Of a DNA stretch of 64,000 bases, positions 6,133 through 63,495 are shown piece by piece. The number at the start of each line of letters is the position of its first letter. The stretch's first letter is position 1. The position numbers and the translations under genes are program-made. The DNA is from Isosphaeraceae bacterium (GTDB taxonomy: Bacteria; Planctomycetota; Planctomycetia; Isosphaerales; Isosphaeraceae): the NCBI GenBank assembly GCA_965199885.1, contig CBDATT010000002.1:1-64000 (forward strand), given 5' to 3'. The notes under the pieces are model-generated. The model did no database searches. It worked only from the letters and a program-made list of their open reading frames with translations, and was not told the DNA's origin.

Positions 6133-6283
6133 GGCGTCCGCCGTTCCTTTGTTCGCTGCCCGTCGCTGCGCTACTGACTCACTCACCAATGAACCATTCC
6201 GCCCGATCCGGGGCGGATCGACTCCAAGCCGACCCGCCCCACCCTGCGATCCGAACCGTTTCCTACGGAACGAGTCAGTGCCG

Positions 6284-6336: not shown

Positions 6337-6363
6337 CGACCCCTCCACGCGCCAGGAAATCGC

Positions 6364-7545
6364 TTAGTCGAGCCGACCACCCGAGAAGTTGGTGATGTTG
6401 TCGCTCTCACGCTGGCGAATACCCGTCTGGTCATCACCGTTGATATTGCCGGGGTCGGTTGCCACCGGCAGCATCGGCAACTTGCCGTTGCCTCCCAGGC
6501 TATTTTGCACATAAGTCCCACCCAGGCCGTAGTACCGATCCTGCCCGGCGGAAAAGAGCTGGAACGAGTTCGGATTCAGCCACGAGACCGTCCCCGATGC
6601 CGCCGGCCCCGAGGTGTAGGGGTTCGGCGAGGGGGAAATATCCAGGGTGGACGCCGTGTTGGTCCCCGACAGATACACCGGGAAGTTGACCAGGAAGCCG
6701 CGAGCCACCGGCGTGCTGCCGTCTTCCTCGAACTCGTAGTCGATCGCCGTCGCCGAGTTGTGGCCGAGCCCATTGATGTCGTTCGGGTCGTACGAGTTCG
6801 TGCCGTACGAGGCGAAGTAGGCATAAGCGCGGCGGTTGCCCGGCGTGATGTCGAGCGGGTCGAGGTACGACGGGATGTGGTCGCCGTCAAGGTCCACCAA
6901 TCGGCCGGCGACGAACTCGTAGTTGGCCGCTGTCCGGTTGGTGGCGAGGGTGCTGTTGATGAACGGATTCGTCGGGAGCTTGCTGAACCCACTCACGCCG
7001 GTGACGACGCCGTTGTTCAGGATCGGAATCCCGCCGAGGAAGAAGGTCAGGCATTCCGACCCATTCAAAAGGGTGGCATGCCCCAGGGCACCGTCATTGA
7101 TCCCGTTGCCGTTGAAGTCGAAGAAACCAGGGCTCGTCGGCGGGACCAGAAAGTTGACCCGCGGCCAGAACGACCGGAGGATGGCCAGCGACCGGTTAGC
7201 GAGGTCCTTGTCGGTGATGTCGGAATCGTTCGACCCGGCGCCGGCGATTGCGGTGCCTGCTGCTGAGGCGAAGAAGGCGGTAAACCCCGCCTCGGGCAAC
7301 AAGACCCGGCTCGGCGGGAAGGCGCCATAGGTCGTCTTGAAGCTCGCCAGCGCGGTCGCCATGTTGTTCAACTCGGCGGCGACCTGCGCTTCGCGGGCTC
7401 GCCGGAACGCACCCGCAATCGCGGGGAGCAAGAGCGCCAGCAGGATGGCGATGATCAGGATCACAACCAGAATTTCCACCAGCGTGAAGCCAAGCCGGCG
7501 GCTGCCAGAGCCAGGGCGAAGGTCGGGGCGGTCGGGGCGGTCCAT
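6364..7545 (-). CDS. prepilin-type N-terminal cleavage/methylation domain protein (about 394 aa)
   Basis: The prepilin motif MDRPDRPDLRPGSGSRRLG|FTLVEILVVILIIAIL starts at the internal Met (7545-7543). The upstream part of the ORF is a Pro-rich low-complexity artefact. The start coordinate is uncertain and could extend as far as 7749. Confidence 0.55.
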   Translation of the reverse strand: MDRPDRPDLRPGSGSRRLGFTLVEILVVILIIAILLALLLPAIAGAFRRAREAQVAAELNNMATALASFKTTYGAFPPSRVLLPEAGFTAFFASAAGTAIAGAGSNDSDITDKDLANRSLAILRSFWPRVNFLVPPTSPGFFDFNGNGINDGALGHATLLNGSECLTFFLGGIPILNNGVVTGVSGFSKLPTNPFINSTLATNRTAANYEFVAGRLVDLDGDHIPSYLDPLDITPGNRRAYAYFASYGTNSYDPNDINGLGHNSATAIDYEFEEDGSTPVARGFLVNFPVYLSGTNTASTLDISPSPNPYTSGPAASGTVSWLNPNSFQLFSAGQDRYYGLGGTYVQNSLGGNGKLPMLPVATDPGNINGDDQTGIRQRESDNITNFSGGRLD

Positions 7546-7770
7546 CGGTCGAAGCTCCGCGGAAGGTGGTTCAGGAGGAGAAACAGGTTTACCCAGGACA
7601 ACGAAACCAGTGTGTTTTGGGGACGACCCGGGCCAGACCCGCCGGGCGGCACCGGGGGCCGCTCCGCTCCGCGCCGGCAGCCGGATCGCGGCGGAAGGTG
7701 AATCAACCGGGTCGATTTCAGGGTGACCAGGCAACGAAGGGAGGATCAACCGCGCGGAGCGAGGACGTCC

Positions 7771-7860: not shown

Positions 7861-9111
7861 TCAGCCCGACAGCTTGCTGATCAGCGAGATCAGCGGCAGG
7901 AACAACGCGATGACGATGAACCCGATGATCCCACCCAGGACCACGATCATGATCGGTTCAAGCAAGCTCACCAGCGACTCGACCAGCGTTTCGACTTCTT
8001 CGTCATAGTTGTCGGCAATCTTGTTGAGCATCGTGTCGAGGTCGCCCGTTTCCTCACCGACGTCGATCATGTTGACCACGATGTCGTCGACGATCCGCGC
8101 TTCGCGGAGCGGCTGCGCGATCGTTTCCCCTTCGCGGATACTCTCGTAGATCCGGGTAAACGCCCGCTCGAACACCATGTTCCCCGCCGTGTCGCGGACG
8201 ATGTTCAGCGACTCCAAAATCGGCACGCCCGACTGCACCAGCGTCCCCAGCGTCCGCGTCGTCCGGGCCACCGTCGACTTCTCGACGATCTGCCCCATGA
8301 CCGGAATCAAGAGCAAGATCCGGTCAAGGATGTACGCTCCCGTCTTGTTCCGATAGATCAATTTAATCATGATCACAAACAAGACCGGTGCCAGGATGAC
8401 AAGATAAAACTTGTCGACCACGACGTGGCTGGCCACGATCAGGAATTTGGTCATCCCCGGCAGGTCGACGCCGAAGTCTTTGAAGATCGCCTCGAACTTC
8501 GGAATGATGAAGTACAGGATGAACCCGACGATCAAGCACGCGACCGAGATGACGACGATCGGGTAAACCATCGCCGACTTGATCCGCCGCTTCAGCGTTT
8601 GCGACTTTTCCTTGAAGTCCGCCAGGCGCTGCAAGATCGCTTCCAGGGCACCGCCCGCCTCACCCGCCTTGATCATGTTGCAATAGAGCTTGTCGAACGC
8701 CTTGGGGTGCTTGGCGAAGGCGTCGGAGAGCGTGGCTCCCGACTCGATATCTTCAACCACGTCTTCCAAAGCGTTCTTCAAGACCCCCGGCTTCGACTGG
8801 CCGTGGAGGATCTTCAGGCTCCGCAGGATCGGCAGACCGGCGTCTTGCAGCGTCGAAAGCTGACGGGTGAACGTGCAAAGCTGCTTCGTCGAGATCTTGC
8901 CGATCGTGAACGACTTCTTCTTCCCCTTGCGCCCGCCCTTCTTGGCGCCGGCGGGTCCCTTTTTCTTCGCCTTGGCCCGCTCGGAGATCTTCGTGACGAA
9001 GAACCCCTTCTGGCGGATCAGTTGCTGCGCTTCTTCCTGGGTGCTGGCGTCGATGGTGTCCTTCACCTCGCGCCCGGTATTATCCATCGCCTCATATTGA
9101 AACGTCGGCAT
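7861..9111 (-). CDS. type II secretion system protein F / type IV pilus platform protein PilC family
   Basis: 416 aa with two GspF-type repeats and three TM segments. It has an unusual Lys-rich insertion, AKAKKKGPAGAKKGGRKGKKK, in the N-terminal cytoplasmic domain. Confidence 0.85.
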   Translation of the reverse strand: MPTFQYEAMDNTGREVKDTIDASTQEEAQQLIRQKGFFVTKISERAKAKKKGPAGAKKGGRKGKKKSFTIGKISTKQLCTFTRQLSTLQDAGLPILRSLKILHGQSKPGVLKNALEDVVEDIESGATLSDAFAKHPKAFDKLYCNMIKAGEAGGALEAILQRLADFKEKSQTLKRRIKSAMVYPIVVISVACLIVGFILYFIIPKFEAIFKDFGVDLPGMTKFLIVASHVVVDKFYLVILAPVLFVIMIKLIYRNKTGAYILDRILLLIPVMGQIVEKSTVARTTRTLGTLVQSGVPILESLNIVRDTAGNMVFERAFTRIYESIREGETIAQPLREARIVDDIVVNMIDVGEETGDLDTMLNKIADNYDEEVETLVESLVSLLEPIMIVVLGGIIGFIVIALFLPLISLISKLSG

Positions 9112-9211
9112 CCTCGGGACTCCTTCGCTCGGTCTGGGTCGCGGTGGTCGGTGACAGTGTCAGCAGGAAGTGATTCAATGATTGAAACGAATCAGGCCAG
9201 GCCGGGGCGGC

Positions 9212-10930
9212 TCACTCGTCGTCGAGCATGGTTTCGCGGATGATCTCTTCGATCGACGTTTGCCCGGTGTGGATCGCTTCGAGCCCCGACTCGCGGAGGG
9301 TTCGCATCCCGTACTTCCGGCACTCGTCGCGGAAAGCGTCGAGCGACGCTTCGGAGACGACCATCTCGCGGAGGTGTTCGTTCATGACCAGGAGTTCATA
9401 GATCCCCATCCGCCCCTTGTACCCGGTGTTGTTGCACTTCTCGCAACCCTTGCCGTAGTAGAACTTTTTCGACGCGGCGACCTCGGGGGTCATCCCCAGC
9501 TCCATCGCCACTTCGGGACTCGGGGTGAACTCGGTCCGGCAGTTGGTGCAGATCCGCCGGACGAGCCGTTGCGCGAGCACCGCCTCGATCGTCGCGGTGA
9601 TCAAGAACGTCGGGATACCCATGTCACGGAGCCGGGTGATCGCCGACGGCGCGTCGTTGGTGTGCAGCGTCGTGAAGACGATGTGCCCGGTCAACGACGC
9701 CTGAATCGCGATCTCGGCGGTTTCAAGGTCGCGGGTCTCACCGACGAGGATCTTGTCGGGGTCTTGCCGCAGGATCGCCCGCAAGCAGGCGGCGAACGTC
9801 ACCCCGATCTCGCCGTTGATCGGCACCTGGATCAGGCCGTCGATGTCGTACTCGACCGGCTCCTCGGTGGTGATGATCTTTTCTTCCGGCGTGTTCAACT
9901 CGTTGAGCGTGGCGTAGAGCGTCGTCGTCTTGCCCGACGACGTCGGCCCGGTCACCAGGATGATCCCGTTCGGCTTGTGGATGATCTCGCGCCAGACCAC
10001 CAGCGTATCCTCGGGCATGCCGATCTTGCGGATGTCGAGGTTGACCACGGTCCGGTCGAGGATTCGCAGCACGACGCTCTCACCGAACAGGGTCGGCAGG
10101 GTCGAAACGCGGATATCGACCTGGTTACCGCCGATCGCCAGCTCGATCCGGCCGTCCTGCGGCAGCCGACGTTCGGCGATGTCGAGGTTCGACATGACCT
10201 TGATGCGCGACGAGATCGCGGGGGCCAGGTGGCGGGGCGGCGGCACGAGTTCATAGAGGATGCCGTCCACCCGGTACCGCATCTTGTACTCGTCTTCAAA
10301 CGGCTCGAAGTGGATGTCCGACGCCTTGTCCTTGATGGCGAGCAGGAGCACCATGTTCAGGAGCTTGCGAACGGGCGCGGCCTCGGCCATTTCCTCGATC
10401 GCTTCGAGGTCGATCGTGTTTTCGTTCCGGTTCTGGAACTGCGACAGCCCCTTGTCGTTTTCGATCTGCTTGACGACGTCCTGAATCGACTCCTGCTTGC
10501 CGGCATAGAGGCGCGTGATCGCCGCCATCACGTCGGATTCCGCCGCGATCACCCCTTTGACGTCGACGCCGAGGAACGACTTGATGCTGTCGAGCGTCTG
10601 CGGGTCGCGGGGGTCGGCCATCGCGACGGTGACGCTCTTGTCCTTCTTGTGCTGCGAGACCGGGACGATCTTGAACGTCGTCGCCATCGTCTCGTTGACC
10701 AGCTCGGTCAACTCGGCGGGCACCGCCATCTCACCGAGCCGAACCACCTTCATGCCGAACTGTTCGCCGAGCGCCTTGAGCACCTGATCCTCGGTGACCA
10801 CGCCGAGGCGCACCGCGACCTTGCCCAGCAGCTCGTTATCCGACCGCTTCTGCTCTTCGAGCACCTTCCAGAGGGTATCGTCGCTGATGTACCCCATGTC
10901 GACCAGGATCGTGCCGATTCGCCGAGCCAT
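9212..10930 (-). CDS. GspE/PilB-family secretion ATPase with N-terminal T2SSE_N domain
   Basis: 572 aa. Walker A box GPTSSGKTTTLYA, Asp box, His box, and a tetracysteine motif CTNC...CEKC are present. The N-terminal region resembles the GspE N-domain. Confidence 0.85.
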   Translation of the reverse strand: MARRIGTILVDMGYISDDTLWKVLEEQKRSDNELLGKVAVRLGVVTEDQVLKALGEQFGMKVVRLGEMAVPAELTELVNETMATTFKIVPVSQHKKDKSVTVAMADPRDPQTLDSIKSFLGVDVKGVIAAESDVMAAITRLYAGKQESIQDVVKQIENDKGLSQFQNRNENTIDLEAIEEMAEAAPVRKLLNMVLLLAIKDKASDIHFEPFEDEYKMRYRVDGILYELVPPPRHLAPAISSRIKVMSNLDIAERRLPQDGRIELAIGGNQVDIRVSTLPTLFGESVVLRILDRTVVNLDIRKIGMPEDTLVVWREIIHKPNGIILVTGPTSSGKTTTLYATLNELNTPEEKIITTEEPVEYDIDGLIQVPINGEIGVTFAACLRAILRQDPDKILVGETRDLETAEIAIQASLTGHIVFTTLHTNDAPSAITRLRDMGIPTFLITATIEAVLAQRLVRRICTNCRTEFTPSPEVAMELGMTPEVAASKKFYYGKGCEKCNNTGYKGRMGIYELLVMNEHLREMVVSEASLDAFRDECRKYGMRTLRESGLEAIHTGQTSIEEIIRETMLDDE

Positions 10931-37123: not shown

Positions 37124-39703
37124 TCAGACCGACCGCGGCCGGCGGGTCGGGGTTTTGACCGGGGGTGGAGTTGGGCTGGGGAGGCTGGGCTTGCGGGCGA
37201 CTTCCTTGGCGGGGCGGGGGCCGGGCTGGGGTTTGGTCGCGGCGGGCTTGGCCTTCTCGGGGGGGAAGAGGAGCTTGACCACGTCTTCCAGGGTGTCAAC
37301 GGCGTGGAAGGTGACGTCGGCCTTGACCTCGGCGGGCAGTTCGATCAGGTCCTTCTCGTTGTGCCGGGGGATCAGGACGGTCGTGATCCCCGCCCGACGC
37401 GCGGCGAGAACCTTCTCGCGGACGCCACCGACCGGCAACACGCGACCGGTGAGCGTGACCTCGCCGGTCATCGCCAGTTCCTGATGGATCGCGCGGTTGC
37501 TGAACAGGCTGATCAGAGCCGCCGAGATCGCCACTCCAGCCGACGGACCATCTTTGGGCACAGCACCGGCGGGGACGTGGATGTGAACATCGGTCTTGGT
37601 GATCTTGCCGGCGTCGAGACCGAGCGCCTGGGCGTGGCTCCGAAGGAACGAGAGTGCCGCCTGCGCTGATTCCCGCATCGACTCGCCGAGGAGGCCGGTC
37701 AGGGTGAGCGTTCCCTTGCCGGGCATCCCCGAGGCTTCGATAAAGAGGATCTCGCCACCGGTCGGCGTCCAGGCCAGCCCGGTCGAAACGCCGGGCGTGC
37801 CGGTCCGGTCGGCGACCTCGCGGAAGAATTTAGGCGGGCCGAGCATGTCGGCCAGCATCTCGGGAACGACCGTCGTGAGCGACTTGTTCCCCTCGGCGTG
37901 CTTGCGGGCGACCTTCCGGCAGACCGTGGCCAGCTCGCGTTCAAAGTTGCGCAGGCCGGCTTCACGGGTGTAGTCAGCCACGACCCGGCGCACGGCCTCG
38001 TCGTCGAACTGGATCAGCTTGTTGGTCAGACCGTGGGCATCCACCTGCTTGGGGATGATGTACTTCTTGGCGATCGTGACCTTTTCTTCCTCGCTGTACC
38101 CGGCCAGCTCGATAATCTCCATCCGGTCGAGCAGGGGGGCGGGGATGGTGTCGAGCTGGTTCGCTGTGGCGATGAACATGACCTTGGAGAGGTCGAAATC
38201 GACGTCGAGGTAGTGGTCGCGGAACGTCGCGTTTTGTTCGGGATCGAGCACTTCCAGCAGCGCCGCCGAGGGATCGCCGCGGAAGTCAGCGCCGAGTTTG
38301 TCGACCTCGTCAAGCATGAAGACCGGGTTGTTCGACCCTGCCTTGCGCAATCCCTGGATGACCCGGCCCGGCATCGCGGCGACGTAAGTCCGGCGGTGAC
38401 CACGGATCTCGGCCTCGTCGTGGACGCCGCCGAGGCTGATCCGGACGAACTCGCGCCCGAGCGCCTTGGCGATGCTCTTGCCGAGCGACGTCTTGCCCGT
38501 GCCGGGAGGACCGGCAAAGCAGAGGATCGGCCCCTTCATGTCCTTCTTGAGCTTCCGGACGGCAAGGTATTCAAGGATGCGTTCCTTGATCTTTTCCAGG
38601 TCGTAGTGGTCGGCGTCGAGGATCTTGCGGGCCCGCCGGAGGTCCAACCGGTCGCGGCTCGACTTCTCCCAGGGGAGGACGGCGAGCCAGTCGAGGTACG
38701 TGCGGACGATCGAATATTCGGCGGAACTGGGGTGCATCCCGGCCAGCCGGTCCATCTCGCGCTCGGCTTCAACGAGGACGTCGGCGGGGGGCTTGGCCTT
38801 TTCGAGCTTTTCCCAGAGTTCGTCGAGTTCGGGGTTGTCCGACTCGGTCTCACCAAGTTCGTCCTGGATGGCCTTGATTTGCTGGCGGAGGAAGTGGTCG
38901 CGCTGCGCCTTGGTGATCTCCGACCCGACCTGCGCCTGGATCTTGCTGGAGAGTTCGAGAACCGTCAACTGCCGGGTCAGGAACGCGCCCAGCTTTTCCA
39001 GCCGGGTCCGAACGTTGGTCTCGGCGAGGAGTTGCTGCTTTTCCTCGATCGTGAACGGGAGACTTGACCCCAGGAGGTCCGCCAGGCGGCCGGGCTCGCG
39101 GGTGTTCATCGCCGCGACCTGTAACTCCTCGGGAACCTGCTGGCTCTGCTCGATCATCCGCTGGAAGAGGCCGTTGACGTGGTGGACGAGCGCGTCGAGT
39201 TCCACCCCTTCCTCGATCACGTCTTCGAGCGGTTCGATCCGGCCGATCAGGTACGGTTCGGTCTGCACGATCTCGATCAGCCGAGCGCGGAACATCCCCT
39301 GCGAAACGACCCGGGTCGAGCCGTCGGGGAACTTGAGCATCTTGAGGACGTTGCCGACGCTCAGGGTCGGGTACAGGTCGCTGATTGTCGGCTCGTCGGT
39401 CTCGGGATGCCGCTGCGCGATCAGGCCGAGGGTTTTCTCCTCGCCCATGATATCGTCGATCAGCTTGATTCCCGCGGCGCGGTTAACCACCAGCGGCACC
39501 ACGGTTTGCGGAAAGACGACGTCGGACCGGAGCGGGAGCAGGGCCACGCGCTCGGGCATCTCGCCCGGCATGGCGTGCTCGACCTGAACCAAGATCCGCC
39601 CGGTCGCCGTTTCTTCGCCGACAACGTCGCGCGGCACGGCTCCCTCGGCTGGAGTTTCCACCGGGGCGGGGCGAGGTCGGCGCGATCTGGGTTTGGTGCT
39701 CAT
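37124..39703 (-). CDS. lon: ATP-dependent Lon protease
   Basis: LON N-domain, AAA+ Walker A box GPPGTGKTS, sensor motifs, and a C-terminal protease domain with the Ser-Lys dyad (PKDGPSAGVA). There is a Pro/Lys-rich C-terminal tail of about 60 aa. Confidence 0.95.
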   Translation of the reverse strand: MSTKPRSRRPRPAPVETPAEGAVPRDVVGEETATGRILVQVEHAMPGEMPERVALLPLRSDVVFPQTVVPLVVNRAAGIKLIDDIMGEEKTLGLIAQRHPETDEPTISDLYPTLSVGNVLKMLKFPDGSTRVVSQGMFRARLIEIVQTEPYLIGRIEPLEDVIEEGVELDALVHHVNGLFQRMIEQSQQVPEELQVAAMNTREPGRLADLLGSSLPFTIEEKQQLLAETNVRTRLEKLGAFLTRQLTVLELSSKIQAQVGSEITKAQRDHFLRQQIKAIQDELGETESDNPELDELWEKLEKAKPPADVLVEAEREMDRLAGMHPSSAEYSIVRTYLDWLAVLPWEKSSRDRLDLRRARKILDADHYDLEKIKERILEYLAVRKLKKDMKGPILCFAGPPGTGKTSLGKSIAKALGREFVRISLGGVHDEAEIRGHRRTYVAAMPGRVIQGLRKAGSNNPVFMLDEVDKLGADFRGDPSAALLEVLDPEQNATFRDHYLDVDFDLSKVMFIATANQLDTIPAPLLDRMEIIELAGYSEEEKVTIAKKYIIPKQVDAHGLTNKLIQFDDEAVRRVVADYTREAGLRNFERELATVCRKVARKHAEGNKSLTTVVPEMLADMLGPPKFFREVADRTGTPGVSTGLAWTPTGGEILFIEASGMPGKGTLTLTGLLGESMRESAQAALSFLRSHAQALGLDAGKITKTDVHIHVPAGAVPKDGPSAGVAISAALISLFSNRAIHQELAMTGEVTLTGRVLPVGGVREKVLAARRAGITTVLIPRHNEKDLIELPAEVKADVTFHAVDTLEDVVKLLFPPEKAKPAATKPQPGPRPAKEVARKPSLPSPTPPPVKTPTRRPRSV

Positions 39704-39901
39704 GCTTCTCGATCAGCCGGCGCAACACGGCGCACATAAGGTCGGGAACGAACGCCCAGCGACACAAGTCAGGACATCGCTCTCAGGACACCCAGGGTGA
39801 ATTGTCGGGGTGATCCCCCCCGAAGGAAAGGGGAGACCCACTTCAAGCCGCAGTTTCCCACAGACTCGCTAAAATAAACGGTTAAGACGTTCTATCTTGC
39901 C

Positions 39902-40771
39902 TCATTTGCGCCACCAATCGTCATCGTCGCCCCCCTCTTGATACCGGCTCTGGAACTGCGCTGCCTGAAGTAACTGGAAGTTGATCAAACCCAGGTAGCC
40001 GACGAGGAGGGCATTGAAGACCTGATCGCGGGTATAGAGCCAGGTGGCAATCAACGCGGCGACGCCGATGGAAACGATATAGCACCACCTTGCCCCCTGC
40101 CGGCGGTCACGCATCAAGAGGAGCGTCTGCGTGACCTGCCCGCCGTCGAGTGGGAAGATTGGCAGCAGGTTGAGCACTCCCCAGAACAGGTTAATATACA
40201 AAAGATCATGGTAGGCTGACAAGATCAGGGGGGTCGAGAAGACCCAACTCGGCGGTTGGTGGATCAGGGCCTGGCGAATCGGCACCAGATCCAACATCCC
40301 GGTCGGGAGGATGCCCAGGACGAAAGTGCCGATGAGTGCCACCAGGATGAACAGGAGGAACCCGGCCCCTGGCCCCATCAAGATGGTGGCCAGCCGGCGC
40401 CAGGGGCTCCCGTGCTCGCGGTCATAGAAGCAGAGGCCACCCATCCCGTAGAGGACCACCGACGGCCGCTGACGGTCGAGCCACCGCGCCGTCATCCCGT
40501 GGCCAAACTCGTGAACCAGGATCGAGACGAACACGCAGGCGACCCAGACCAGAATTTGTGCCGGTTCGCGGCTCCACCCAAGCAGTGCGGTGACGCCCCA
40601 GAAGAACGGGTTGATCCGAACCGGGATACCCAGCAGGCGAAAGTTCACATCATAAGCGGTGGTCGCGGGCACTCCCAGCATGAGCGATACCTTGCGTCCC
40701 TTCCGGGTCGAACGGATCATCAAAGAAAAGAGAGGGATCAGCCCCAACGGAATCTTACACCAAATCGCCAC
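39902..40771 (-). CDS. site-2 protease family (M50) intramembrane metalloprotease
   Basis: The HEFGH zinc motif lies in a TM helix. NxxPxxxLDGG (LLPIFPLDGGQ) is present, with multiple TM segments. Confidence 0.75.
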   Translation of the reverse strand: MAIWCKIPLGLIPLFSLMIRSTRKGRKVSLMLGVPATTAYDVNFRLLGIPVRINPFFWGVTALLGWSREPAQILVWVACVFVSILVHEFGHGMTARWLDRQRPSVVLYGMGGLCFYDREHGSPWRRLATILMGPGAGFLLFILVALIGTFVLGILPTGMLDLVPIRQALIHQPPSWVFSTPLILSAYHDLLYINLFWGVLNLLPIFPLDGGQVTQTLLLMRDRRQGARWCYIVSIGVAALIATWLYTRDQVFNALLVGYLGLINFQLLQAAQFQSRYQEGGDDDDWWRK

Positions 40772-54310: not shown

Positions 54311-55405
54311 ATGCCTGCTCCCATCTCCGCCGCTCGCCTGCAAGCCAACCGCCGGAACGCCCAGCTTTCGAGCGGACCGAAGACGCCCGAGGGCAAGGCA
54401 CGCTCACGAGCTAACGCCGTCAAGCACGGTCTGACCGGCGCCGGGATCGCCTTGCCGAGCGAGGATGCCGCCGCGATCGAGGCCCGCTTCCTCACGATGC
54501 AGGAAGATTTTGCTCCCTCCACGCTTGGCGGCGCCTTGTTGATCCACCTGGCCGCCCTGATGTCGGTGCGGATCGAGCGCTGTGGTCGCCTGGAAGCCGC
54601 CGCCGTGGCCCACCTCCGTCGCCACGCGGGCGACGAGTTTGAGCTGGCTCGCCTGGACGACATCGACGACCTCTTCCATACCATCACCGCCGACCCGCGC
54701 GGCAATCACCGCCGGTTACAAACGAGTATCGAGGGGGTGGACCTTTTGCTCGCCGCCTTGCAAGGCGTGCGCGATCAGGTCGAATCGGGCGCTTACCAGA
54801 CGTGGACCGACGAGGACCGCGCCCAGGTGGACGCCTTCCTCGGTGGGGCATCCTCGAAGTTCCTGCGGTCGCGGGCCGCTGCGCTGATGCAGGCGTTGCA
54901 GGGCAACCTCGACGGCATCACCTCCCGCGAACGGACCCAACTGCCGCCCGGCGACACGCGCCAGTCGCATCTGCGCGTTGAGCTGATCTTGCTGGTCGAC
55001 GTCGAGCGTGCCCGCCTGGAGCAGGTCCGAGCCACCATCGACCCCTCGATCGTCGCCGATGATCGCCAGGAAGCCGCCGGGCGGGCCACCTTGCCGATGA
55101 CCCCCGAGTCGATCCTCCACAAGAAGTACGAGGCGGCGGCGATCAGCACCTTCCTGCGGGCCATCCGCGACTTCCAGAAGGTCGAAAAGGCCGAAGCCGA
55201 AGCGGTGGCCGAAGTGACTCAACCTGATGTCCAGCCCACAGTTGTGGCTCCCGCCGCAGCGCCTGTTCCCGCCGTGTCGCCTCCGGTCGCCGCCGTTCCC
55301 AATATGCAACCCGTCGTCAAAAACGAACCCATCGCGCCGCGGGCCGTTGACCCCAATCCGAACCCAAACAACGTCCCGGTCCATCATTTTTCCGGGTCGC
55401 GCTGA
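54311..55405 (+). CDS. hypothetical protein, paralogue of the 15246-16214 gene
   Basis: N-terminus MPAPISAARLQANRRNAQLSSGPKTPEGKARSRANAVKHGLTGAG aligns with MSTSAARIEANRKNAQLSTGPTSVAGKAASRGNALKHGLTA. The length is similar and the Pro-rich C-terminus is shared. Confidence 0.45.
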   Translation: MPAPISAARLQANRRNAQLSSGPKTPEGKARSRANAVKHGLTGAGIALPSEDAAAIEARFLTMQEDFAPSTLGGALLIHLAALMSVRIERCGRLEAAAVAHLRRHAGDEFELARLDDIDDLFHTITADPRGNHRRLQTSIEGVDLLLAALQGVRDQVESGAYQTWTDEDRAQVDAFLGGASSKFLRSRAAALMQALQGNLDGITSRERTQLPPGDTRQSHLRVELILLVDVERARLEQVRATIDPSIVADDRQEAAGRATLPMTPESILHKKYEAAAISTFLRAIRDFQKVEKAEAEAVAEVTQPDVQPTVVAPAAAPVPAVSPPVAAVPNMQPVVKNEPIAPRAVDPNPNPNNVPVHHFSGSR

Positions 55406-55613: not shown

Positions 55614-57026
55614 ATGTCGAGCCGCGCCGCTGACTCGTTGCTTGCGTTCCAGTGGACCGTCCAGCCCGCTGCCAGCGCGTGGGTAGATGCGGTCTGGATG
55701 ATGGTTCAGCGTGAGCTTCCCTGGGCACGCGACTTTGCCAACCGCCTGCTCAAAGAAGCCGGAACCCGGTTCGTCGACCTGATCGACACGGTTTTCTTGC
55801 CGTTGGGGGATGATCGGCTCGCGAGTGCGCTGGCCGCCGGCTGGGAAGCCAGCGGCACGAGTGGGAACTTCGAAGTTTTCGACCAGCCGCAGGGGATTTT
55901 TCCCTCGATCGCCGTCGGCGCGACGGCGCGGCTCGGTGTGGAGTTGAAGGTCGAGAGCGTGGTCGACTTTCTCGCCGCGCACACCCTGACACGGTCGATC
56001 GAGGGTCGCCCGGGCGCGCCTTATCGCCGGGTCGTCATCGACTCGGGGGCCGGCGTGGACCTGAGCATCGCCGAGCGGCACGGGACGCGAGGCTACTCGA
56101 CCGCTGATGGCCCGGATCTGGCCGCCATCCAGGCCGTGGTCGAGGACTTCCGGACCCGCCCGCGCGATTTCCTCGACCCCGCCGAGGGCTTCGCCGATGC
56201 CGAGCAGCGGATCGACGCCGCGATCGACCGGATCGGCCGCGACCATGCCTGCGACCTCTTCTTCCACGCCGAGCGTGCCTACTGGACGGGTCGGAACCAG
56301 GCGGCGCGGGTTCAAAAAGGGCGGCAGGATCGGCTCGGGATCGGCTGGGCGAACCACGACCACCACACGTATCGGAGCAGCCGATCGAGCTTCGCGCTAC
56401 TCGTCCGGGTCTTCGAAAAGCTCGGCCTCGTCTGCCGCGAGCGGTTCTACGCCGGGCTGGCGGCCGGTTGGGGGGCGCAGGTGATGGAGCACCCCGTGAC
56501 GCGGATCGTCACGTTCAACGACGTCGATCTCTCGCCCGCCGAGCTGCAAGGCGACTTCAGCCACGACGGCCTCGCCCCCCGCGCCAATCTGGCGACCATC
56601 GGCCTCTGGTGCGGGCTCCACGGCGAAGCGTTCCTCCAGGCGGGTATGCACCACCTGGAATGCGTCTTCAGCTTCGACGCCCTCCGCGACCAGCTCGCCG
56701 CCGAGGCCAACATCCGCGTCATGAAGCCCTTCACCGACTTCGGCTACCTCCGCCAGGCGTTCACCGAGGGGGAAAAGTGGGCCGTCGCCCCCACTCGGAT
56801 CGAAGCCTTGCGCAACCAGGGGCTGATCACCCCCGACCAGGCTGATCGGTTCCGGACCGAGGGCGCCATCGGCTCGCACCTCGAAAACCTGGAGCGCAAC
56901 GACGGCTTCAAGGGCTTCAACCAGCACGGAGTCAGCGAGATCATCGCCGCCACCGACCCCCGCCGCCAGGCCGACCGCGACGCCTTCGAGACCGTGGACT
57001 ACCAGACGGTTGGCACGCACGCATGA
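55614..57026 (+). CDS. hypothetical protein (470 aa)
   Basis: Long ORF with balanced, non-low-complexity composition, in contrast to the overlapping antisense ORFs. No family recognised. Confidence 0.4.
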   Translation: MSSRAADSLLAFQWTVQPAASAWVDAVWMMVQRELPWARDFANRLLKEAGTRFVDLIDTVFLPLGDDRLASALAAGWEASGTSGNFEVFDQPQGIFPSIAVGATARLGVELKVESVVDFLAAHTLTRSIEGRPGAPYRRVVIDSGAGVDLSIAERHGTRGYSTADGPDLAAIQAVVEDFRTRPRDFLDPAEGFADAEQRIDAAIDRIGRDHACDLFFHAERAYWTGRNQAARVQKGRQDRLGIGWANHDHHTYRSSRSSFALLVRVFEKLGLVCRERFYAGLAAGWGAQVMEHPVTRIVTFNDVDLSPAELQGDFSHDGLAPRANLATIGLWCGLHGEAFLQAGMHHLECVFSFDALRDQLAAEANIRVMKPFTDFGYLRQAFTEGEKWAVAPTRIEALRNQGLITPDQADRFRTEGAIGSHLENLERNDGFKGFNQHGVSEIIAATDPRRQADRDAFETVDYQTVGTHA

Positions 57027-57198: not shown

Positions 57199-57642
57199 TC
57201 ACGAACCCAGCACGACGGCCGCTCCCGTCAGCAGCAGGACCACGCCGCCCACGCGGAGCCACGACACCGCGTGCGGGTCGAACCCGAGTAAGCCGAAGTG
57301 GTCGAGGACGACCGACGTCACGATCTGGCCGGTGACGACGATGCCGAGCCAGGAGGCGGCTCCGAGCTTGCGTGAAAAGGTCACCGTCAGCAACAGGTAG
57401 ACCGCTCCGAGCGAGCCGCCGAGCCAGGCCCACCAGGGGCCGGCCTTCCACTGCGTCGCCGAGGGCCAGGGAGTCCGGGCGATGAGGCCGTAGACAAGCA
57501 GGACCAGAGTGCCCGAGGCGAACGAGGTGATGGCTGCGATGATCGGTTGGTCGAGCTTGACCCGGAGGCCGTTGTTGACTCCCACCTGGATCGCGATCGC
57601 GGCGCCGGCAACCAGGGCGATCGCCGCGTAAGTCCATGACAT
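57199..57642 (-). CDS. DMT family transporter (DUF606/YdcZ-like)
   Basis: 147 aa with 4-5 TM helices and the conserved pattern AIQVGVN...LGGSLGAVYLLLTVTFSRKLGAASWLGIVVTGQI. Confidence 0.6.
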   Translation of the reverse strand: MSWTYAAIALVAGAAIAIQVGVNNGLRVKLDQPIIAAITSFASGTLVLLVYGLIARTPWPSATQWKAGPWWAWLGGSLGAVYLLLTVTFSRKLGAASWLGIVVTGQIVTSVVLDHFGLLGFDPHAVSWLRVGGVVLLLTGAAVVLGS

Positions 57643-57902
57643 AAGCTGGGTCTGACCTTTCGGGTCGAAGAGATCCGGGCGGAGGGCAGCGAAGCTGGGG
57701 GCACATCAGGCTAGCCAGGTTGCGACGAGGATGCAACCGCCCCTTGCCGGACCTCACCTTTCCGTTGATGATAGACTCGGGGGAAAGTCGGCCCAATCCG
57801 GTCGGCTTTGACGCTTTATCCCGTATGAGATCCGAGGCCCCAGCGTCGCGATCGGGCTTGAGCCGTCGAGTCGGAGGCGCTGCGGTGATGGGCGGAGGAC
57901 CG

Positions 57903-58514
57903 ATGGATCTGATCGCGAAGGCGCGGGCCGGTGAGCCCGAAGCCCTTGGCGAGTTGTGTCACCTTTACCGCAACTACATGCGGATGGTGGTCCGGACCGG
58001 CCTTGGCCCGAAGCTCCGCGAGCGGGTGGAACTGTCCGACGTGGTCCAGGAAACCCTGGTCGAGGTGGTCCGCCAATTTCCGCACTTTACCGGCCAGAAC
58101 GAGGCAGCGCTGGTCGGTTGGCTCCGGCGGCTGGTCGGGCAAAAGCTGGCCGACCTCGGGCGCTACCACAGCCGAGCCAAGCGGTCCGGCGAGACCCCCG
58201 ACGTGGCGCTCGACGCCGCGTGGGATCTGCCGGGCGGCGGTGGGGCTGGTGAGGGGGGGCGACTCCTCGACATGCTCTCACTCAGCCAGACCAGTCCAAG
58301 CGAGGCCGTCAGTCGCCGCGAGCAGACCGTCTTGCTGGCCGATGCCCTCGCGGCACTGCCGGAAACCGAGGCCGAAGTCCTCTGGCTCCGCCACGCCGAC
58401 AACCTCTCGTTTGAGGCGATCGGCGACCGGATGGGAGTCAGCCGCAAGAGCATCCGCGGGATCTGGGCCCGCGGCCTGAAAAGCCTGAGGCGGACCCTCG
58501 ACGGCCCGCGCTAG
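57903..58514 (+). CDS. RNA polymerase sigma-70 factor, ECF subfamily
   Basis: Sigma region 2 (LCHLYRNYMRMVV...DVVQETLVEV) and region 4 HTH (EVLWLRHADNLSFEAIGDRMGVSRKSIRGIWARGLKSLR). The start could alternatively be 57888. Confidence 0.7.
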   Translation: MDLIAKARAGEPEALGELCHLYRNYMRMVVRTGLGPKLRERVELSDVVQETLVEVVRQFPHFTGQNEAALVGWLRRLVGQKLADLGRYHSRAKRSGETPDVALDAAWDLPGGGGAGEGGRLLDMLSLSQTSPSEAVSRREQTVLLADALAALPETEAEVLWLRHADNLSFEAIGDRMGVSRKSIRGIWARGLKSLRRTLDGPR

Positions 58515-58599
58515 CTGAATTCTTTCCCAGGCGCGTCGGTCGTGCGTTCGACCTCGTCGCGAGTCCTCCTGACCGACTCCCCGGAAGGGTGCCCTCATC

Positions 58600-61500
58600 A
58601 TGGTCCGGCGCGTGGATAATAGTTCCGACTCCGATCAGCCGACCGGCTTCGACCCCGATGGCTCGACCCTCTCGCCGGGGCGGAACCCTGCGCCGCTGGG
58701 CAACCCCCCGGTGGACCGCGACGAGCGACTCGGCGAGGCGATCGAGGCGTACCTGGAACAGGCCGAGGCGGGTCTGCCGCCCGACCCCGAGACGTTCGCC
58801 GCCGACTACCCCGACCTCGGCGACGACCTCCTCGCCGCGCTCGAAGGTCTGGCGCTGGTCAAGGGGCTGGTCGGTGGTCCCGGCGGTCCCGGCCATCGCC
58901 TCGAAGAAGGCCGGCGCGTCGCGGGCTACCGGATCGTCCGCGAACTCGGGCGGGGCGGGATGGGAGTGGTCTACGAGGCCGTCCATGTCGGGCTCGACCG
59001 GCCGGTCGCGCTCAAGGTCCTGGGATCGCAGGCCACGCCCGACTCGTCGGGGCGGCGGCGGTTCCTCAACGAGGCACGGACAGCGGCGGGCTTGCACCAC
59101 ACGCACATCGTCCCGGTCTTCGACGTCGGCCAGGTCGGCGGCCTCTGCTACTACGCGATGCAGCGGATTGAAGGGTCGGGGCTCGACCGCGTCCTGAAAG
59201 CGCTCCGGCGTGATCGGACCGTCGCGTCGGGTTCGACGCACGGGTCCACCCTCCGGCCGGGCAAGCCCGCCGGCCCGACCGGAGCCAGTCCCAACGGCAA
59301 GCCGGCGGAACCGATCCTCGGCGATGAGACGCTCTCGTGGATGGGCGCCAGCGGCCCGATGAGCGGCGGCGGGTCACGCCGTGGCCGCTGGCCGGTCGAC
59401 GCCGAGACCGAGGACGGGCCGGTCTTCAACCCCCCGCGCGGGTCGAACTATTATCGGTGGGTCGCCGACGTCGGTCGGCAGGCCGCCGAGGCGCTGGCGC
59501 ATGCCCACCAGCGCGGGATCATCCACCGCGACATCAAGCCGTCGAACCTCCTTGTCGATGCCCGAGGTGTGATCTGGGTGGCCGACTTTGGCCTTGCCCG
59601 TCGCCTGGCCGACCCGAGCCAGACGCAGGTCGATAGCCTGCTCGGGACCCCCCGCTACATGAGCCCCGAGCAAGCCAGGACGGGCGCCATCGACGGCCGC
59701 GCCGACGTCTACAGCCTCGGCGCCACCCTCTACGAGTTGATCACCCTCCGCCCGCCGTTCGATGGTCAGACCGCCGCCGAGCTGATCGACCAGATCGCCA
59801 CTCGCGAGCCGAGCCGACCCCGGAAGTTCGACATGCGGGTGCCGCTCGACCTGGAAACGATCCTCCTCAAGGCCCTCGCCAAGCGCCCGAGCGACCGCTA
59901 CGCCGGCGCGAGCGAACTGGCCGAGGATCTGGCCCGGTTCCTGGCCCATGAGCCGGTCCGAGCCCGGCGGATCGGCCCGATTGGCCGGACCTGGCGGTTC
60001 GCCCGCCGCCACCCTGGGGTCTCAGTCGTCTCGGTCCTGGCAACGACGCTTGTCCTGACGACGGCGTCGGTCGCCTATGTCCGGATCGATCGTGCTCGTC
60101 GCGTGGCCGACCGCGCGGCCGACGGGACCTTGCAGGCGTTGCTTGAGACCGAAGCCGTCAACAGCCAGCTGGAAATTGTCAATGACCAGTTGAAGGTCGC
60201 TGTGCTCGAAGGATATGAAAAACAGGCGGCGAACACGCTCTTATCGAGAGCGGCGAACCGGCGGTCGAGCGGGCTTGATCTGGTGAAGCGGGCGGCCAAA
60301 CTGGGCAAGGAGATGCCAGCCGACCCCGACCGGCGGGTCCGCCTCCGCGACCAGGCGCTCGCGTTCCTGACGCTCCGCGACGTCGAGGCCCAACCGCCGA
60401 TCCACCTGACCGACGGTCCGCGCCGGGGGCTCGTCTTTGGCCCGAATAGCCAGCGGATCGCGGCTCTGAGCGAAGATGGGGAACTGGCCGTCTGGAATGT
60501 GGCCGACCGCGAGGCGATCGACGCTTCCCGGATGGCGATCGCCCCGGCGCGTCGGGGTCGGATCGGGCGCGGCGGTGGCTACCGGTCGTTGTTTCCGGGC
60601 GATCGGATCGCGGTGGCCGGCGACCAGTTCGTCGTCATCCAGCCCGACGAGGCGGGCGTCCGCTGGTTCGACGTGACGGCCCCCGATGATCCGGTCGCTG
60701 AGTTCGCCATCAAGGGGCAGCATGTCGTCTCGGTCCTCGCCGCGACCGATAGCCGGCGCTTCGTGACCATCGGTCTACCGATCGCGCCGGCGCGGGTTGG
60801 TCCGCCTGGGCCGGGCCTCGATCCGTCCGGGCCTCGACCTGAGGAGGAAGAATTGCGGATCTGCCTCTGGGATCGCGACCATCCCGACGCTCCCCTGGCG
60901 ATCCTGACGCTCGACCCACCCCCCGCGGATGGCCCGCCCGGTCGGCTCCTGCTGGCCATCGCGCCGGATGGGTCGAAGATTGCCGCGGCGCGGTCGATCG
61001 GGGCCTCGGTGGCGCTCTGGAACGGCGACGGTCTGCCCCTCAAACCGATCCCGATCCAGGGGAACGCCACCGCGCTGGCGATCGGGCCGACCGGGCAACT
61101 GGCGATCGCTGGCAACGGCGGGACCGTGGCGTTCTGGGATCTCGCGCTGCCCAGCCCCAAACCGCTCCCCGGGATCGACTTGCATCTGAACTTCGTCTAC
61201 TTCCTCCGGTTCAGCCCGCGCGACGGGTCGATGCTCGCCGCCGCCGGTTACATGAGCCACGATATCGAACTCTGGGACCTCGCCACGCAGACGCCGATCG
61301 CCGCGCTGGCCGCGCCCGACGGAGTCACCGATCTGGCCTTCGCGCCCGACGGCCGGACCCTGACGGCCGCATCCACCCCCGACCCGAAGACCCAGACCAC
61401 CAGCACCACCGCGCAGATCGCGTTCTGGTCGCTGGTCGAGCCGACGGCTCAGACGGCGCTGGCTGAATCGGGCGATTACACCTCAGCGCTCGCCTTCGGG

Positions 61501-62445
61501 CCGGGCAATCTCCTGGCCATCGCGTCGGTGGAAGCCAACCTCGCCACGGCCGGGCCGCTCCGCCTCTGGGGCGGGCCGGGCCAGTGCCCGCCGTCGATCA
61601 CGTCCTGGCCGAAGGTCCGGCCGATCTCGGTCAGCTTCGACCCCTCAGGGCAACTCATCACCACCGACGCGGACACGCTTCGCTGGTTCCAGCCGCCACA
61701 GATCGAGCCGATCCGCGAGGTCCCGATCCTGAACGAGAACCGACCCCCGAGCCGACCCGGTGAGCGGCGGTTCGACCCGCCTCCTCGGGTCGTCGCCCGG
61801 AGTGCTGATGGCTCGACGCTCCTGATCAGCCGCCGCGATACCCTCTTCTCGTGGCGGGCGAGCGCTCCCACCACGCTCGCCCGCATGACGACCGACGCCG
61901 ACCGGCGGCCGGAAGGGTTCGCCCGCGGAGTCCAGGCCGTGCTCGCCCCTGACGCGACCCGCTTCTACCACCTGGCCCAGCGTGGGGCGGAACTCCTGGC
62001 CCGCCCGATCGACGCCCACGAGATCCACACCCCCGTCTGGACCGTGGCGGTGACGCAGGCGAACCACCTGATCCTGAGCCCCGACGGCCGGACCCTGGCG
62101 ATCGGCAACCACCTGGGCGAGGTCGAACTCCGCGACGCCCTCGATGGTTCGTTTCAGGCCCGACTGCCGATCACCGCCACCGACAAACCGGGACCCGTCG
62201 AGGCGCTTGCCTTCGCCCCGGACGGCCGGACCCTCGCCGTCGGCGGCGGCGAACAGGTCCGCCTCTGGGCCATCGACGCCCCGGCCCGGCCCCTGGTGCG
62301 CCTGTCCGGCTACCGGGGCGCTGTTCGAACCCTGGCGTTCGATCTGCTCGGCGGTCAGATCGCCGGCGCTGATGACAAGATCATCAAGGTCTGGGACCTC
62401 ACTCGGCTCCGCCAGGAACTCGATCGGGTCGGTCTCAACTGGTAA
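58600..62445 (+). CDS. serine/threonine protein kinase with TM segment and C-terminal WD40/beta-propeller repeats
   Basis: Kinase subdomains GRGGMGVVYEA, VALKVL, HRDIKPSNLLVD, DFGLAR and SPEQ. One TM helix is near aa 480. WD-like repeats (VAVWNV, VALWNG, VAFWDL, IELWDL, IKVWDL) follow. Confidence 0.85.
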   Translation: MVRRVDNSSDSDQPTGFDPDGSTLSPGRNPAPLGNPPVDRDERLGEAIEAYLEQAEAGLPPDPETFAADYPDLGDDLLAALEGLALVKGLVGGPGGPGHRLEEGRRVAGYRIVRELGRGGMGVVYEAVHVGLDRPVALKVLGSQATPDSSGRRRFLNEARTAAGLHHTHIVPVFDVGQVGGLCYYAMQRIEGSGLDRVLKALRRDRTVASGSTHGSTLRPGKPAGPTGASPNGKPAEPILGDETLSWMGASGPMSGGGSRRGRWPVDAETEDGPVFNPPRGSNYYRWVADVGRQAAEALAHAHQRGIIHRDIKPSNLLVDARGVIWVADFGLARRLADPSQTQVDSLLGTPRYMSPEQARTGAIDGRADVYSLGATLYELITLRPPFDGQTAAELIDQIATREPSRPRKFDMRVPLDLETILLKALAKRPSDRYAGASELAEDLARFLAHEPVRARRIGPIGRTWRFARRHPGVSVVSVLATTLVLTTASVAYVRIDRARRVADRAADGTLQALLETEAVNSQLEIVNDQLKVAVLEGYEKQAANTLLSRAANRRSSGLDLVKRAAKLGKEMPADPDRRVRLRDQALAFLTLRDVEAQPPIHLTDGPRRGLVFGPNSQRIAALSEDGELAVWNVADREAIDASRMAIAPARRGRIGRGGGYRSLFPGDRIAVAGDQFVVIQPDEAGVRWFDVTAPDDPVAEFAIKGQHVVSVLAATDSRRFVTIGLPIAPARVGPPGPGLDPSGPRPEEEELRICLWDRDHPDAPLAILTLDPPPADGPPGRLLLAIAPDGSKIAAARSIGASVALWNGDGLPLKPIPIQGNATALAIGPTGQLAIAGNGGTVAFWDLALPSPKPLPGIDLHLNFVYFLRFSPRDGSMLAAAGYMSHDIELWDLATQTPIAALAAPDGVTDLAFAPDGRTLTAASTPDPKTQTTSTTAQIAFWSLVEPTAQTALAESGDYTSALAFGPGNLLAIASVEANLATAGPLRLWGGPGQCPPSITSWPKVRPISVSFDPSGQLITTDADTLRWFQPPQIEPIREVPILNENRPPSRPGERRFDPPPRVVARSADGSTLLISRRDTLFSWRASAPTTLARMTTDADRRPEGFARGVQAVLAPDATRFYHLAQRGAELLARPIDAHEIHTPVWTVAVTQANHLILSPDGRTLAIGNHLGEVELRDALDGSFQARLPITATDKPGPVEALAFAPDGRTLAVGGGEQVRLWAIDAPARPLVRLSGYRGAVRTLAFDLLGGQIAGADDKIIKVWDLTRLRQELDRVGLNW

Positions 62446-62817
62446 ACTTTGCCTCGTTTCACCAGATTCTGACCTGATGTTCAGGGAAGATGGGGAAACC
62501 GCGTAATTTCATAAAATTGCTCGAAATGCTTCACTTTCGTAAACAGAATCCGGGTAAAACACCAGCAGTCACGACCGTTTGGGAGGGGTTTCCGCCAGTT
62601 TTGCGGGTGAGAATCATGCTTTTGCCCTGTGAGATCGAAAGATTGCCGATTGCTTTCTTTGGCATCATTTTCAGTCCGAAAGAGTTCGCTCTGAACAATT
62701 TCCATCACGGCAAAGTTTGCGAAATTTTGCAAAAAAAGATTGCATTCCAGGAAGGCATATCCCATCTTGGCAGGGGAACGCGGGGGTCAGCGAGGCTTCC
62801 CACTTCTCCGACTGATC

Positions 62818-63495
62818 ATGGCCGATCGACTGTGGGCAGTGGTGCCATTGCTGGCACTGGAGACTGCGTCCGCTCGGAGCGATACGCACCCGCGAGCTTC
62901 TGCCGGAGTTGGTCTGTTGTATTCACATCCCTTTACCTTTTCTTTTCGTTTTTCCCTTCACCTCTTCTTCGTCCCGTTCCTGAGTCTGCTGCTCGTCGAC
63001 TCATCGCCCGCTCTGGCCAAAGCGGCTGAGTTAGCCCCCCCCGCACCGCCCGTCGTTGATATTCCGCCGCCGCCGCCCGCGCCGGAAACTTTGGAGCCTG
63101 AGAACTTCAAGCCCGCGACGGCCGAAATCTTGCTGTCGCATCCCGTGGCGGTTGCCATGCAGGCCGCAGTCGTCGAGTACGTTCCCGCCGGCGACCCGTA
63201 CGGCTTTACCGCGTGGCTCAACGGCGTCCGATCCCAGTATGGCCTCGGCGCCGTGGGCGTGGACTCCAACCTCTCGAACTGGGCCGCGATGAACAACGGC
63301 CAGCAGAACGCGATGGGCATGGGACACCACGTCATGGGTCCCGCCCGCCGCCAGAACTCGGGGATGGGTGCCGCTGGCACCGTCTGGCAGATGTGGATGG
63401 CGTCACCCGCCCACCAGGCCGCCCTGCTCGATCCCTCGATCAGCATGATCGGGATCGCCGCTGGTGGCGCCTACTGGACTTTCAACGCCTACTGA
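62818..63495 (+). CDS. CAP (SCP/PR-1/YkwD-like) domain secreted protein
   Basis: Signal peptide MADRLWAVVPLLALETASA, a Pro-rich linker, and a C-terminal block VWQMWMASPAHQAALLDPSISMIGIA that resembles the CAP motif WMNSPGHRANIL...GVG. Confidence 0.4.
   Translation: MADRLWAVVPLLALETASARSDTHPRASAGVGLLYSHPFTFSFRFSLHLFFVPFLSLLLVDSSPALAKAAELAPPAPPVVDIPPPPPAPETLEPENFKPATAEILLSHPVAVAMQAAVVEYVPAGDPYGFTAWLNGVRSQYGLGAVGVDSNLSNWAAMNNGQQNAMGMGHHVMGPARRQNSGMGAAGTVWQMWMASPAHQAALLDPSISMIGIAAGGAYWTFNAY

Follow-up and report, generated by a model that had tools for sequence, protein, structure and literature searches.

How is an extracytoplasmic function (ECF) sigma factor controlled when the gene beside it encodes a membrane-anchored Ser/Thr kinase and not an anti-sigma factor? 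The question is raised by a locus close to the end of a 64,000-nucleotide (nt) stretch of Isosphaeraceae bacterium DNA (assembly GCA_965199885.1, contig CBDATT010000002.1, positions 1 to 64,000), referred to here as the window, where a sigma factor gene is followed by the gene of a large kinase carrying a double WD40 propeller. The locus is probably a signalling operon of two genes, with the membrane kinase in the role of the anti-sigma factor. In the reading that we favour, to which we give a probability of roughly 0.6, the propeller acts as a sensor for the kinase, the kinase phosphorylates the sigma factor, and the phosphorylated sigma factor binds core RNA polymerase better and transcribes its regulon. 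The arrangement has already been recognised in the comparative genomics of ECF sigma factors and planctomycete kinases, and the window pair is a further case of it. The three elements of the locus, with lengths in amino acids (aa), are:

57888-58514, + strand: ECF sigma factor gene, 208 aa from the ATG at 57888 or 203 aa from the ATG at 57903
58515-58599, no strand: intergenic gap of 85 nt, without an open reading frame (ORF), a sigma70-type promoter or a terminator
58600-62445, + strand: membrane Ser/Thr kinase gene with a double WD40 propeller, 1281 aa

An earlier note on this DNA had described an ECF sigma factor gene and, after it, the gene of a 1281-aa kinase, and both ORFs are found where it placed them. 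For the sigma factor ORF, given there as 57903-58514, the end at 58514 stands, and the start may be either the ATG at 57903 or the one 15 nt before it, at 57888, which is the start of the identical 208-aa database protein P0001; residues of the sigma factor are counted here from ATG 57903. The kinase gene does follow directly, across a gap that we count as 85 nt rather than 86. In other loci (L051 and L082-L085) the two genes overlap, which fits a single operon, and the conserved pair of sigma factor and kinase is probably co-transcribed.

Is the neighbourhood of the two genes a coincidence of this genome? Across 80 related Isosphaeraceae genome loci, the kinase gene stands immediately after the sigma factor gene in 75, from Tundrisphaera, Singulisphaera, Paludisphaera, Tautonia and many metagenome-assembled genomes (MAGs), while the flanks are not conserved; this pairing is far beyond chance. 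The remaining five are a locus cut by the contig end (L073), one with a different neighbour (L004) and three that hold paralogues of about 67% identity (L075, L076 and L078). Identity falls from the sigma factor (75-88%) through the kinase domain (60-79%) to the sensor (26-48%), a gradient that is expected of a fixed output joined to a fast-evolving input.

A small anti-sigma gene overlooked between or after the two genes had been named as the observation that would overturn the kinase-linked interpretation. We looked for one and found none at the locus: there is no ORF in the 85-nt gap, none of the ORFs that flank the pair in the window matches an anti-sigma family in Pfam or NCBIfam, and when the flanking ORFs of the 76 pair-bearing loci were clustered, even the commonest family occurred in only 24 of the 76. 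Since no third gene is conserved beside the pair, we conclude that no anti-sigma gene has been overlooked at the locus, which is all that this negative covers. The architecture, the planctomycete origin and the missing anti-sigma gene are thus all as expected of the Planctomycete-type kinase-linked ECF arrangement that had been proposed here, in agreement with the literature (PMC7826278, PMC8999054).

The sigma factor itself qualifies as an ECF (group 4) sigma-70 protein: it is about 200 aa long, has the sigma2 and sigma4 domains only and passes the superfamily model TIGR02937 (sigma70-ECF in NCBIfam; 70.7 bits, cutoff 42.9). In Pfam, PF07638 (Sigma70_ECF) is matched over residues 2-189 with 34.6 bits (cutoff 21.1), Sigma70_r4 and r4_2 score above their cutoffs with 43.6 and 35.0 bits, and Sigma70_r2 falls slightly under its cutoff of 24 with 22.1 bits. 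By far the top NCBIfam subfamily is the planctomycete-specific TIGR02984 (Sig-70_plancto1), which aligns over the full length at 161.3 bits, under its cutoff of 183.75. Isosphaeraceae orthologues from the same genera and many MAGs are 77-92% identical. Two short motifs of the protein deserve attention:

58029-58040, + strand: sigma2.2 core-binding motif E43-L44-S45-D46 (ELSD), counterpart of the canonical DAED; S45 codon at 58035-58037
58290-58301, + strand: linker motif T130-S131-P132-S133 between sigma2 and sigma4, candidate phospho-acceptor 2

The canonical sigma2.2 motif DAED (consensus DxxDxxQE) contacts the beta-prime clamp of RNA polymerase (PMC8999054, PMC13147305). In ECF43 sigma factors it is found as STTA, QTTA or QATE, with the third-position Thr phosphorylated (PMC8999054, PMC13147305), and EcfK carries further phosphosites in its linker (T104-S110), of which T106 is required in vivo (PMC13147305). 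The window sigma factor has Ser at the ECF43 phospho-Thr position and both acidic residues of DxxD in place. The surrounding VELSDVVQE is unchanged across 13 orthologues, as is LSQTSPSE in the linker across the sigma orthologues. From the aligned motifs, S45 is a candidate for the first phospho-acceptor of the sigma factor and T130-S133, by analogy, for the second. Five distant sigma-kinase pairs, retrieved through the N-terminal module of the kinase described below, extend this picture: their sigma2.2 motifs read DASD (three), EPED (one) and DAAD (one), and the linker [S/T]-P-S is invariant in all six distant kinase-linked sigma factors sampled. Judged by these motifs, Ser is common at the third sigma2.2 position, with four of the six distant kinase-linked sigma factors having it, and the Glu of EPED reads as a natural phosphomimic.

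Which ECF group does the protein belong to? ECF groups held to be kinase-controlled include ECF43, ECF59-62, ECF217 and others (PMC7826278, PMC8999054), and the kinase-linked planctomycete groups lack anti-sigma factors (PMC7826278). ECF43 is recognised by an acidic motif swapped for uncharged residues together with a conserved Thr (consensus QTTA), a pattern that the window sigma factor does not have; as it keeps both acidic positions (ELSD) and has Ser in place of Thr, it is not a typical ECF43 member. Kinase-linked groups other than ECF43 keep a DAED-like motif with Ser/Thr inside or nearby (PMC8999054), and at the sigma2.2 phospho-site, Ser is the residue of ECF59 and of ECF60 as originally defined (PMC8103513). 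Ser at this site, a planctomycete host and a kinase neighbour, the three ECF59/ECF60-type features, are all present in the window pair, in a comparison made at the level of these features. On its motifs, the sigma factor fits the Ser-type planctomycete kinase-linked groups of the literature. Planctomycete kinase-linked groups such as ECF59, ECF61, ECF62 and ECF217 were reportedly described by Jogler in 2012 and Casas-Pastor in 2021. An assignment to ECF61 through its exemplar OJW24604.1 (Planctomycetales bacterium 71-10) was rejected, as a different protein, OJW26993.1, is the orthologue there; the window sigma factor is thereby shown not to correspond to the exemplar, while it may still be a member of the group.

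The second protein of the pair has a modular build, which resolves into six features:

58708-58875, + strand: N-terminal three-helix module, aa 37-92, with helices at 40-56, 63-67 and 74-91; AlphaFold2 predicted local distance difference test (pLDDT) 76-89
58927-59940, + strand: Hanks-type kinase domain, aa 110-447; Pfam Pkinase in two stretches, 7e-40
59215-59442, + strand: variable disordered insert in the kinase domain, aa ~206-281, about 75 residues, pLDDT below 50
60016-60081, + strand: single predicted transmembrane (TM) helix, aa 473-494, the sole strong hydrophobic peak, helical in the AlphaFold2 model
60085-60369, + strand: juxtamembrane stalk, with helices at aa 496-548 (53 residues), 554-570 and 576-590; AlphaFold2 pLDDT 84-98
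60379-62397, + strand: tandem pair of seven-bladed WD40 beta-propellers, aa 594-1266, with 56 strands

Kinase domain, single TM helix and long WD40-like C-terminal part had all been noted before from the sequence, and each is borne out. Every catalytic motif of the kinase is intact (G-loop GRGGMG at 117, VALK at 136, HRD at 309, DFG at 329 and SPE at 355), and the closest solved relatives of the domain are PknB, StkP and PknA, with E about 1e-50. The insert between the two Pfam-matched halves varies in length, but T244 and W247 within it (LGDxTxSW) hardly vary at all. Segment 473-494, with a 19-residue Kyte-Doolittle mean of 1.94, is the only hydrophobic one. Beyond it, Pfam recognises WD40 repeats (1e-22, 80 bits), and an AlphaFold2 model of residues 495-1281, built on 60 orthologues, reaches a pLDDT of 91.8 and a predicted TM-score of 0.88, its 56 beta-strands forming 14 four-stranded blades. 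The best Foldseek matches of this sensor in the PDB are likewise double seven-bladed propellers (2ymu, Pwp2, Aip1 and Apaf-1). The model of residues 1-494 is weaker (pLDDT 69.6). The double propeller is probably periplasmic, in line with the extracytoplasmic location suggested for it earlier, with the general prediction of periplasmic WD40 domains for planctomycete Ser/Thr kinases (PMC11032199) and with the need of the kinase for ATP.

The most unusual part of the kinase is its N terminus. Behind 36 variable, disordered residues, positions 37-105 are about 90% conserved in 120 orthologues, equal to the catalytic core. Searched against Pfam and NCBIfam at E values up to 10, the three-helix module matched no family, anti-sigma families included. 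A profile of the module run against 1.84 billion proteins found 1136 cluster representatives (clusters at 50% identity), nearly all with the module at the extreme N terminus. The distant carriers are Ser/Thr kinases in nine of nine cases, with TPR, WD40 or no recognisable sensors, and of the six genomic contexts that were informative, five show a PF07638-type ECF sigma factor directly beside the distant module-bearing kinase. Four bystander kinases occur in the retrieved loci, and all four have neither the module nor a sigma factor within 3 kb. These samples of nine carriers, six contexts and four bystanders are small. Apparent module-less kinases beside a sigma factor were rejected as a further class, since they are kinases of the orthologous set that frameshifts in draft assemblies have broken up, which leaves the four true bystanders. 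Orthologous kinases are split over reading frames in L010, L020, L033, L035, L064, L074, L080 and other loci from MFD* MAGs; the splits in the MFD* loci are most likely frameshift errors, which can mimic truncated or module-less kinases.

Against solved structures, the module profile gave no match beyond weak ones that resemble pentatricopeptide repeats (PPRs), and it did not detect 9eed, which is entered as a 'Kinase domain protein' of 364 aa and is possibly PknS 1-364. The PPR-like PDB matches are summed over repeats, at about 8 bits each. The first helix-turn of the module (window 58708-58800, aa ~42-67), ERLGEAIEAYLxLAExGxxPDPExFA, resembles a single PPR repeat. With each repeat at only about 8 bits, we did not accept PPR homology and treat the likeness as a hint of shape.

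The conservation and linkage of the module suggest that it is the sigma-facing part of the system, a docking element and possibly one that holds the sigma factor. Going further, we tentatively propose that it is an undescribed sigma-recognition domain, for docking or for anti-sigma-like holding, which would define a large ECF-coupled kinase family (at least 1136 cluster representatives) with one output and interchangeable WD40, TPR or other sensors, and which together with the Ser-type sigma2.2 motif and the [S/T]-P-S linker would mark a second mechanistic class of phosphorylation control, distinct from ECF43. This extended proposal is one that we consider possible and somewhat doubtful.

If the module can hold a sigma factor, could the kinase work mainly as a membrane tether? 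The module would then sequester the sigma factor in the manner of an anti-sigma factor and a signal would release it, with or without phosphorylation, so that phosphotransfer would be secondary or absent. Such a tether would account for a module that is conserved like the catalytic core, belongs to no known family and always lies N-terminal to the kinase in a mostly ECF-linked family. The module is also a short helical unit, as are class II/III anti-sigma domains. In addition, the acidic core-binding residues are kept, so the sigma factor may be active by itself and require inhibition. However, the module has no sequence match to any anti-sigma family, and the strict conservation of all catalytic motifs argues that catalysis is essential. 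Moreover, both ECF-kinase pairs studied experimentally use direct phosphorylation (PMC8999054, PMC13147305). On balance we regard the tether as unlikely.

A second source of information on the locus is the DNA upstream of the sigma factor gene. The orthologous upstream regions have in common a bipartite motif, AACCGGGTCC-N15-TGACGCCTA (short form GGTCC-N15-GACGCCTA). In 44 instances that were selected on the -10-like box alone, GG[GTC][TAC]C stands exactly 15 nt from this box in 37, with the exact GGTCC in 22 of those (about 0.13 expected). A weight matrix built on the motif scores at least 15 bits upstream of the sigma factor in 49 of the 80 loci, a count that is partly circular since most of these are training instances; elsewhere in the 1.13 Mb of loci, no match reaches 17 bits. 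The window has the following copy:

57784-57819, + strand: candidate operon promoter, with -35-like GGCCC at 57790-57794, a 15-nt spacer and -10-like GACGCTTTA at 57810-57818

This copy is a degenerate variant found also in the closest relatives (L001, L002 and L035). It scores 13.9 bits with the weight matrix, which reaches 9 bits nowhere else in the 64-kb window, and the search of the window for a regulon with the same matrix yielded no further site and no regulon members. From its position and spacing, the bipartite motif looks like the promoter of the operon. Autoregulation is typical for ECF sigma factors.

A promoter of this kind invites an explanation in which the two genes are merely expressed together: the sigma factor would transcribe the kinase gene as a member of its regulon, the kinase would act on other substrates, and how active the sigma factor is would depend on transcription of its own gene or on proteolysis. 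The conserved promoter-like motif fits control at the level of transcription, the sigma factor keeps its acidic DxxD positions, and there are kinase-less paralogues with the same motifs as well as an orthologue, in L004, without an adjacent kinase. Yet adjacency in 75 of 80 loci and overlapping stop and start codons, across families with different sensors, are stronger than is usual for a regulon member, and the Ser/Thr residues stand where phosphosites have been mapped experimentally in ECF43 members (PMC13147305). We judge co-expression alone to be improbable, much as we do the tether. Least probable of all is control by a conventional anti-sigma factor whose gene lies in another part of the genome, with the kinase as a second, modulating layer: only 64 kb of the genome is covered and multi-layered ECF control is documented, for example in ECF267 (PMC7826278), but anti-sigma genes normally occupy position +1 of the sigma factor (PMC7826278), where there is none here or in the 76 related loci, and kinase-linked groups typically lack anti-sigma factors (PMC7826278).

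That the sigma factor is phosphorylated by its neighbouring kinase, the reading that we prefer, has to be weighed against several observations. Both acidic DxxD residues are kept (ELSD), so that a loss of core binding without the phosphate is not implied by the sequence and the unphosphorylated window sigma factor may not be fully inactive. One distant kinase-linked sigma factor has Ala at the position equivalent to S45 (DAAD), which means that Ser45 cannot be a universal switch, and the third position of DAED varies in ordinary ECF sigma factors too. Kinase-less paralogues of the sigma factor exist. Together with the retained acidic residues, they keep both the tether and the co-expression explanation alive. 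The flanks of the TM helix are both positively charged and the positive-inside rule gives no topology, so the placement of the domains rests on the need of the kinase for cytoplasmic ATP and on the prediction for planctomycete kinases (PMC11032199). The candidate promoter is not tied to any particular sigma factor, and its window copy is not significant on its own, as 13.9 bits lie within the range of shuffled sequences. Finally, the phosphorylation documented in the literature cited here concerns ECF43 pairs and no Ser-type planctomycete group.

We infer phosphorylation of the window sigma factor from the gene linkage and from Ser/Thr residues at the positions of the EcfP and EcfK phosphosites. 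On this basis, signalling by the sigma-kinase pair would proceed as follows. The periplasmic double propeller would bind a ligand or a partner protein, and the signal would pass through the stalk and TM helix, probably by dimerisation, to bring about autophosphorylation of the activation loop, as in PknB-type receptor kinases. The cytoplasmic kinase, whose N-terminal three-helix module is proposed to recognise the sigma factor, would then phosphorylate the latter at Ser45 of ELSD and/or in the T130-S131-P132-S133 linker. As demonstrated with EcfP Thr63 and EcfK Thr51/Thr106, the added negative charge would strengthen binding to the beta-prime clamp helices of the RNA polymerase core. The resulting holoenzyme would transcribe the regulon, probably including its own operon from the GGTCC-N15-GACGCCTA-type promoter in a positive feedback, until a Ser/Thr phosphatase encoded elsewhere resets the system.

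How does such a system relate to those already characterised? In EcfP/PknT and EcfK/PknS, the sigma factor is phosphorylated directly, at sigma2.2 and/or in the linker region (PMC8999054, PMC13147305). These ECF43 pairs, from Vibrio parahaemolyticus (EcfP-PknT) and Xanthomonas citri (EcfK-PknS), resemble the window pair in that a sigma factor adjoins a Hanks kinase that crosses the membrane once and carries an extracytoplasmic sensor, with no anti-sigma factor. The likeness extends to a hydroxyl residue at the third position of the DAED-equivalent motif and to Ser/Thr residues in the linker (T104-S110 in EcfK). However, ECF43 sigma factors have lost the acidic residues and use Thr, whereas the window sigma factor keeps the acidic positions of ELSD and has Ser. 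The window kinase is further set apart from ECF43 kinases by its double WD40 sensor and by its N-terminal module, which the profile did not detect in 9eed, and the hosts are proteobacteria in one case and a planctomycete in the other. ECF59, ECF61, ECF62 and ECF217 share with the window pair the planctomycete host, the adjacent kinase and the lack of an anti-sigma factor. PknB-type receptor kinases (M. tuberculosis PknB, S. pneumoniae StkP) likewise combine a cytoplasmic kinase, one TM helix and an extracytoplasmic sensor, but this sensor consists of PASTA repeats instead of a double WD40 propeller, the N-terminal module and the insert of about 75 residues in the kinase domain are missing, and their known substrates are not sigma factors. 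In contrast, the planctomycete kinases with WD40 or TPR sensors surveyed in PMC11032199 are identical in architecture to the window kinase, with a cytoplasmic Pkinase domain, one TM helix and predicted periplasmic WD40 arrays; that survey took up neither the ECF linkage nor the N-terminal module.

The loci that lack the kinase merit a brief description of their own. The three sigma factor paralogues (L075:8031-8633, L076:7749-8699 and L078:7773-8645; ~67% identical) keep ELSD and TSPS and have no kinase nearby. They also lack the upstream GGTCC-N15-GACGCCTA motif, and two of them come from MAGs that hold a kinase-linked copy as well; the same kinase might serve these paralogues in trans. In L078, the genes after the paralogue encode a dioxygenase-like protein and a membrane protein with multiple passes. 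The L004 orthologue (7986-8618, 84% identity) has no kinase gene after it; an ORF of 599 aa (9107-10906), some 500 nt further downstream, has an ECF-sigma-like start, followed by a TM segment and a long extension.

The genes that flank the pair in the window are common only to its closest relatives. Upstream and divergent from the sigma factor gene, 57199-57642 (- strand) encodes a YdcZ-type inner-membrane protein of the drug/metabolite transporter family (PF04657, 7e-38), kept at this place in L001, L012 and L035 only. Before it, the ORFs 54311-55405 (+ strand, 364 aa) and 55614-57026 (+ strand, 470 aa) have a coding-like codon composition and no match in Pfam or NCBIfam, and in other loci they are not found beside the pair. 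Downstream of the kinase gene, the G+C content drops to about 0.59 (62446-63495). The ORF listed there at 62740-63495 ends in about 100 CAP/YkwD-like residues (a weak Pfam match) that are 75-83% identical in L002, L012 and L035; translation of this ORF probably begins well inside the listed coordinates. Some 18 kb upstream of the pair and positionally unrelated to it, 37124-40771 (- strand) encodes a Lon protease (859 aa) beside a Peptidase_M50 protein of 289 aa, from the site-2 protease family. The latter is of note because other systems use M50 proteases to process their membrane anti-sigma factors. The commonest neighbour of the pair, an ORF family on the same strand upstream of it in 24 of the 76 loci, is absent from the window. 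In L051, a protein of about 800 aa with a P-loop (GHRNVGKTT) occupies the upstream position (5304-7724) and may belong to the 24-locus family.

Finally, we would like to consider what the locus means for kinase-controlled sigma factors in general. Experimental proof of such control comes from two proteobacterial ECF43 pairs only; the planctomycete groups, in which the arrangement is commonest, are predictions. The window pair leaves the current understanding unchanged and fits the earlier proposals from comparative genomics. What it may add, as a suggestion that we put forward with reserve, is the N-terminal module, which may characterise a large ECF-coupled kinase family and possibly serves it for recognition of the sigma factor. 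Because the pair is clean and very conserved, with concrete sites and with candidates for an autoregulated promoter and for a sigma-recognition module, it could serve as a model for the Ser-type class.

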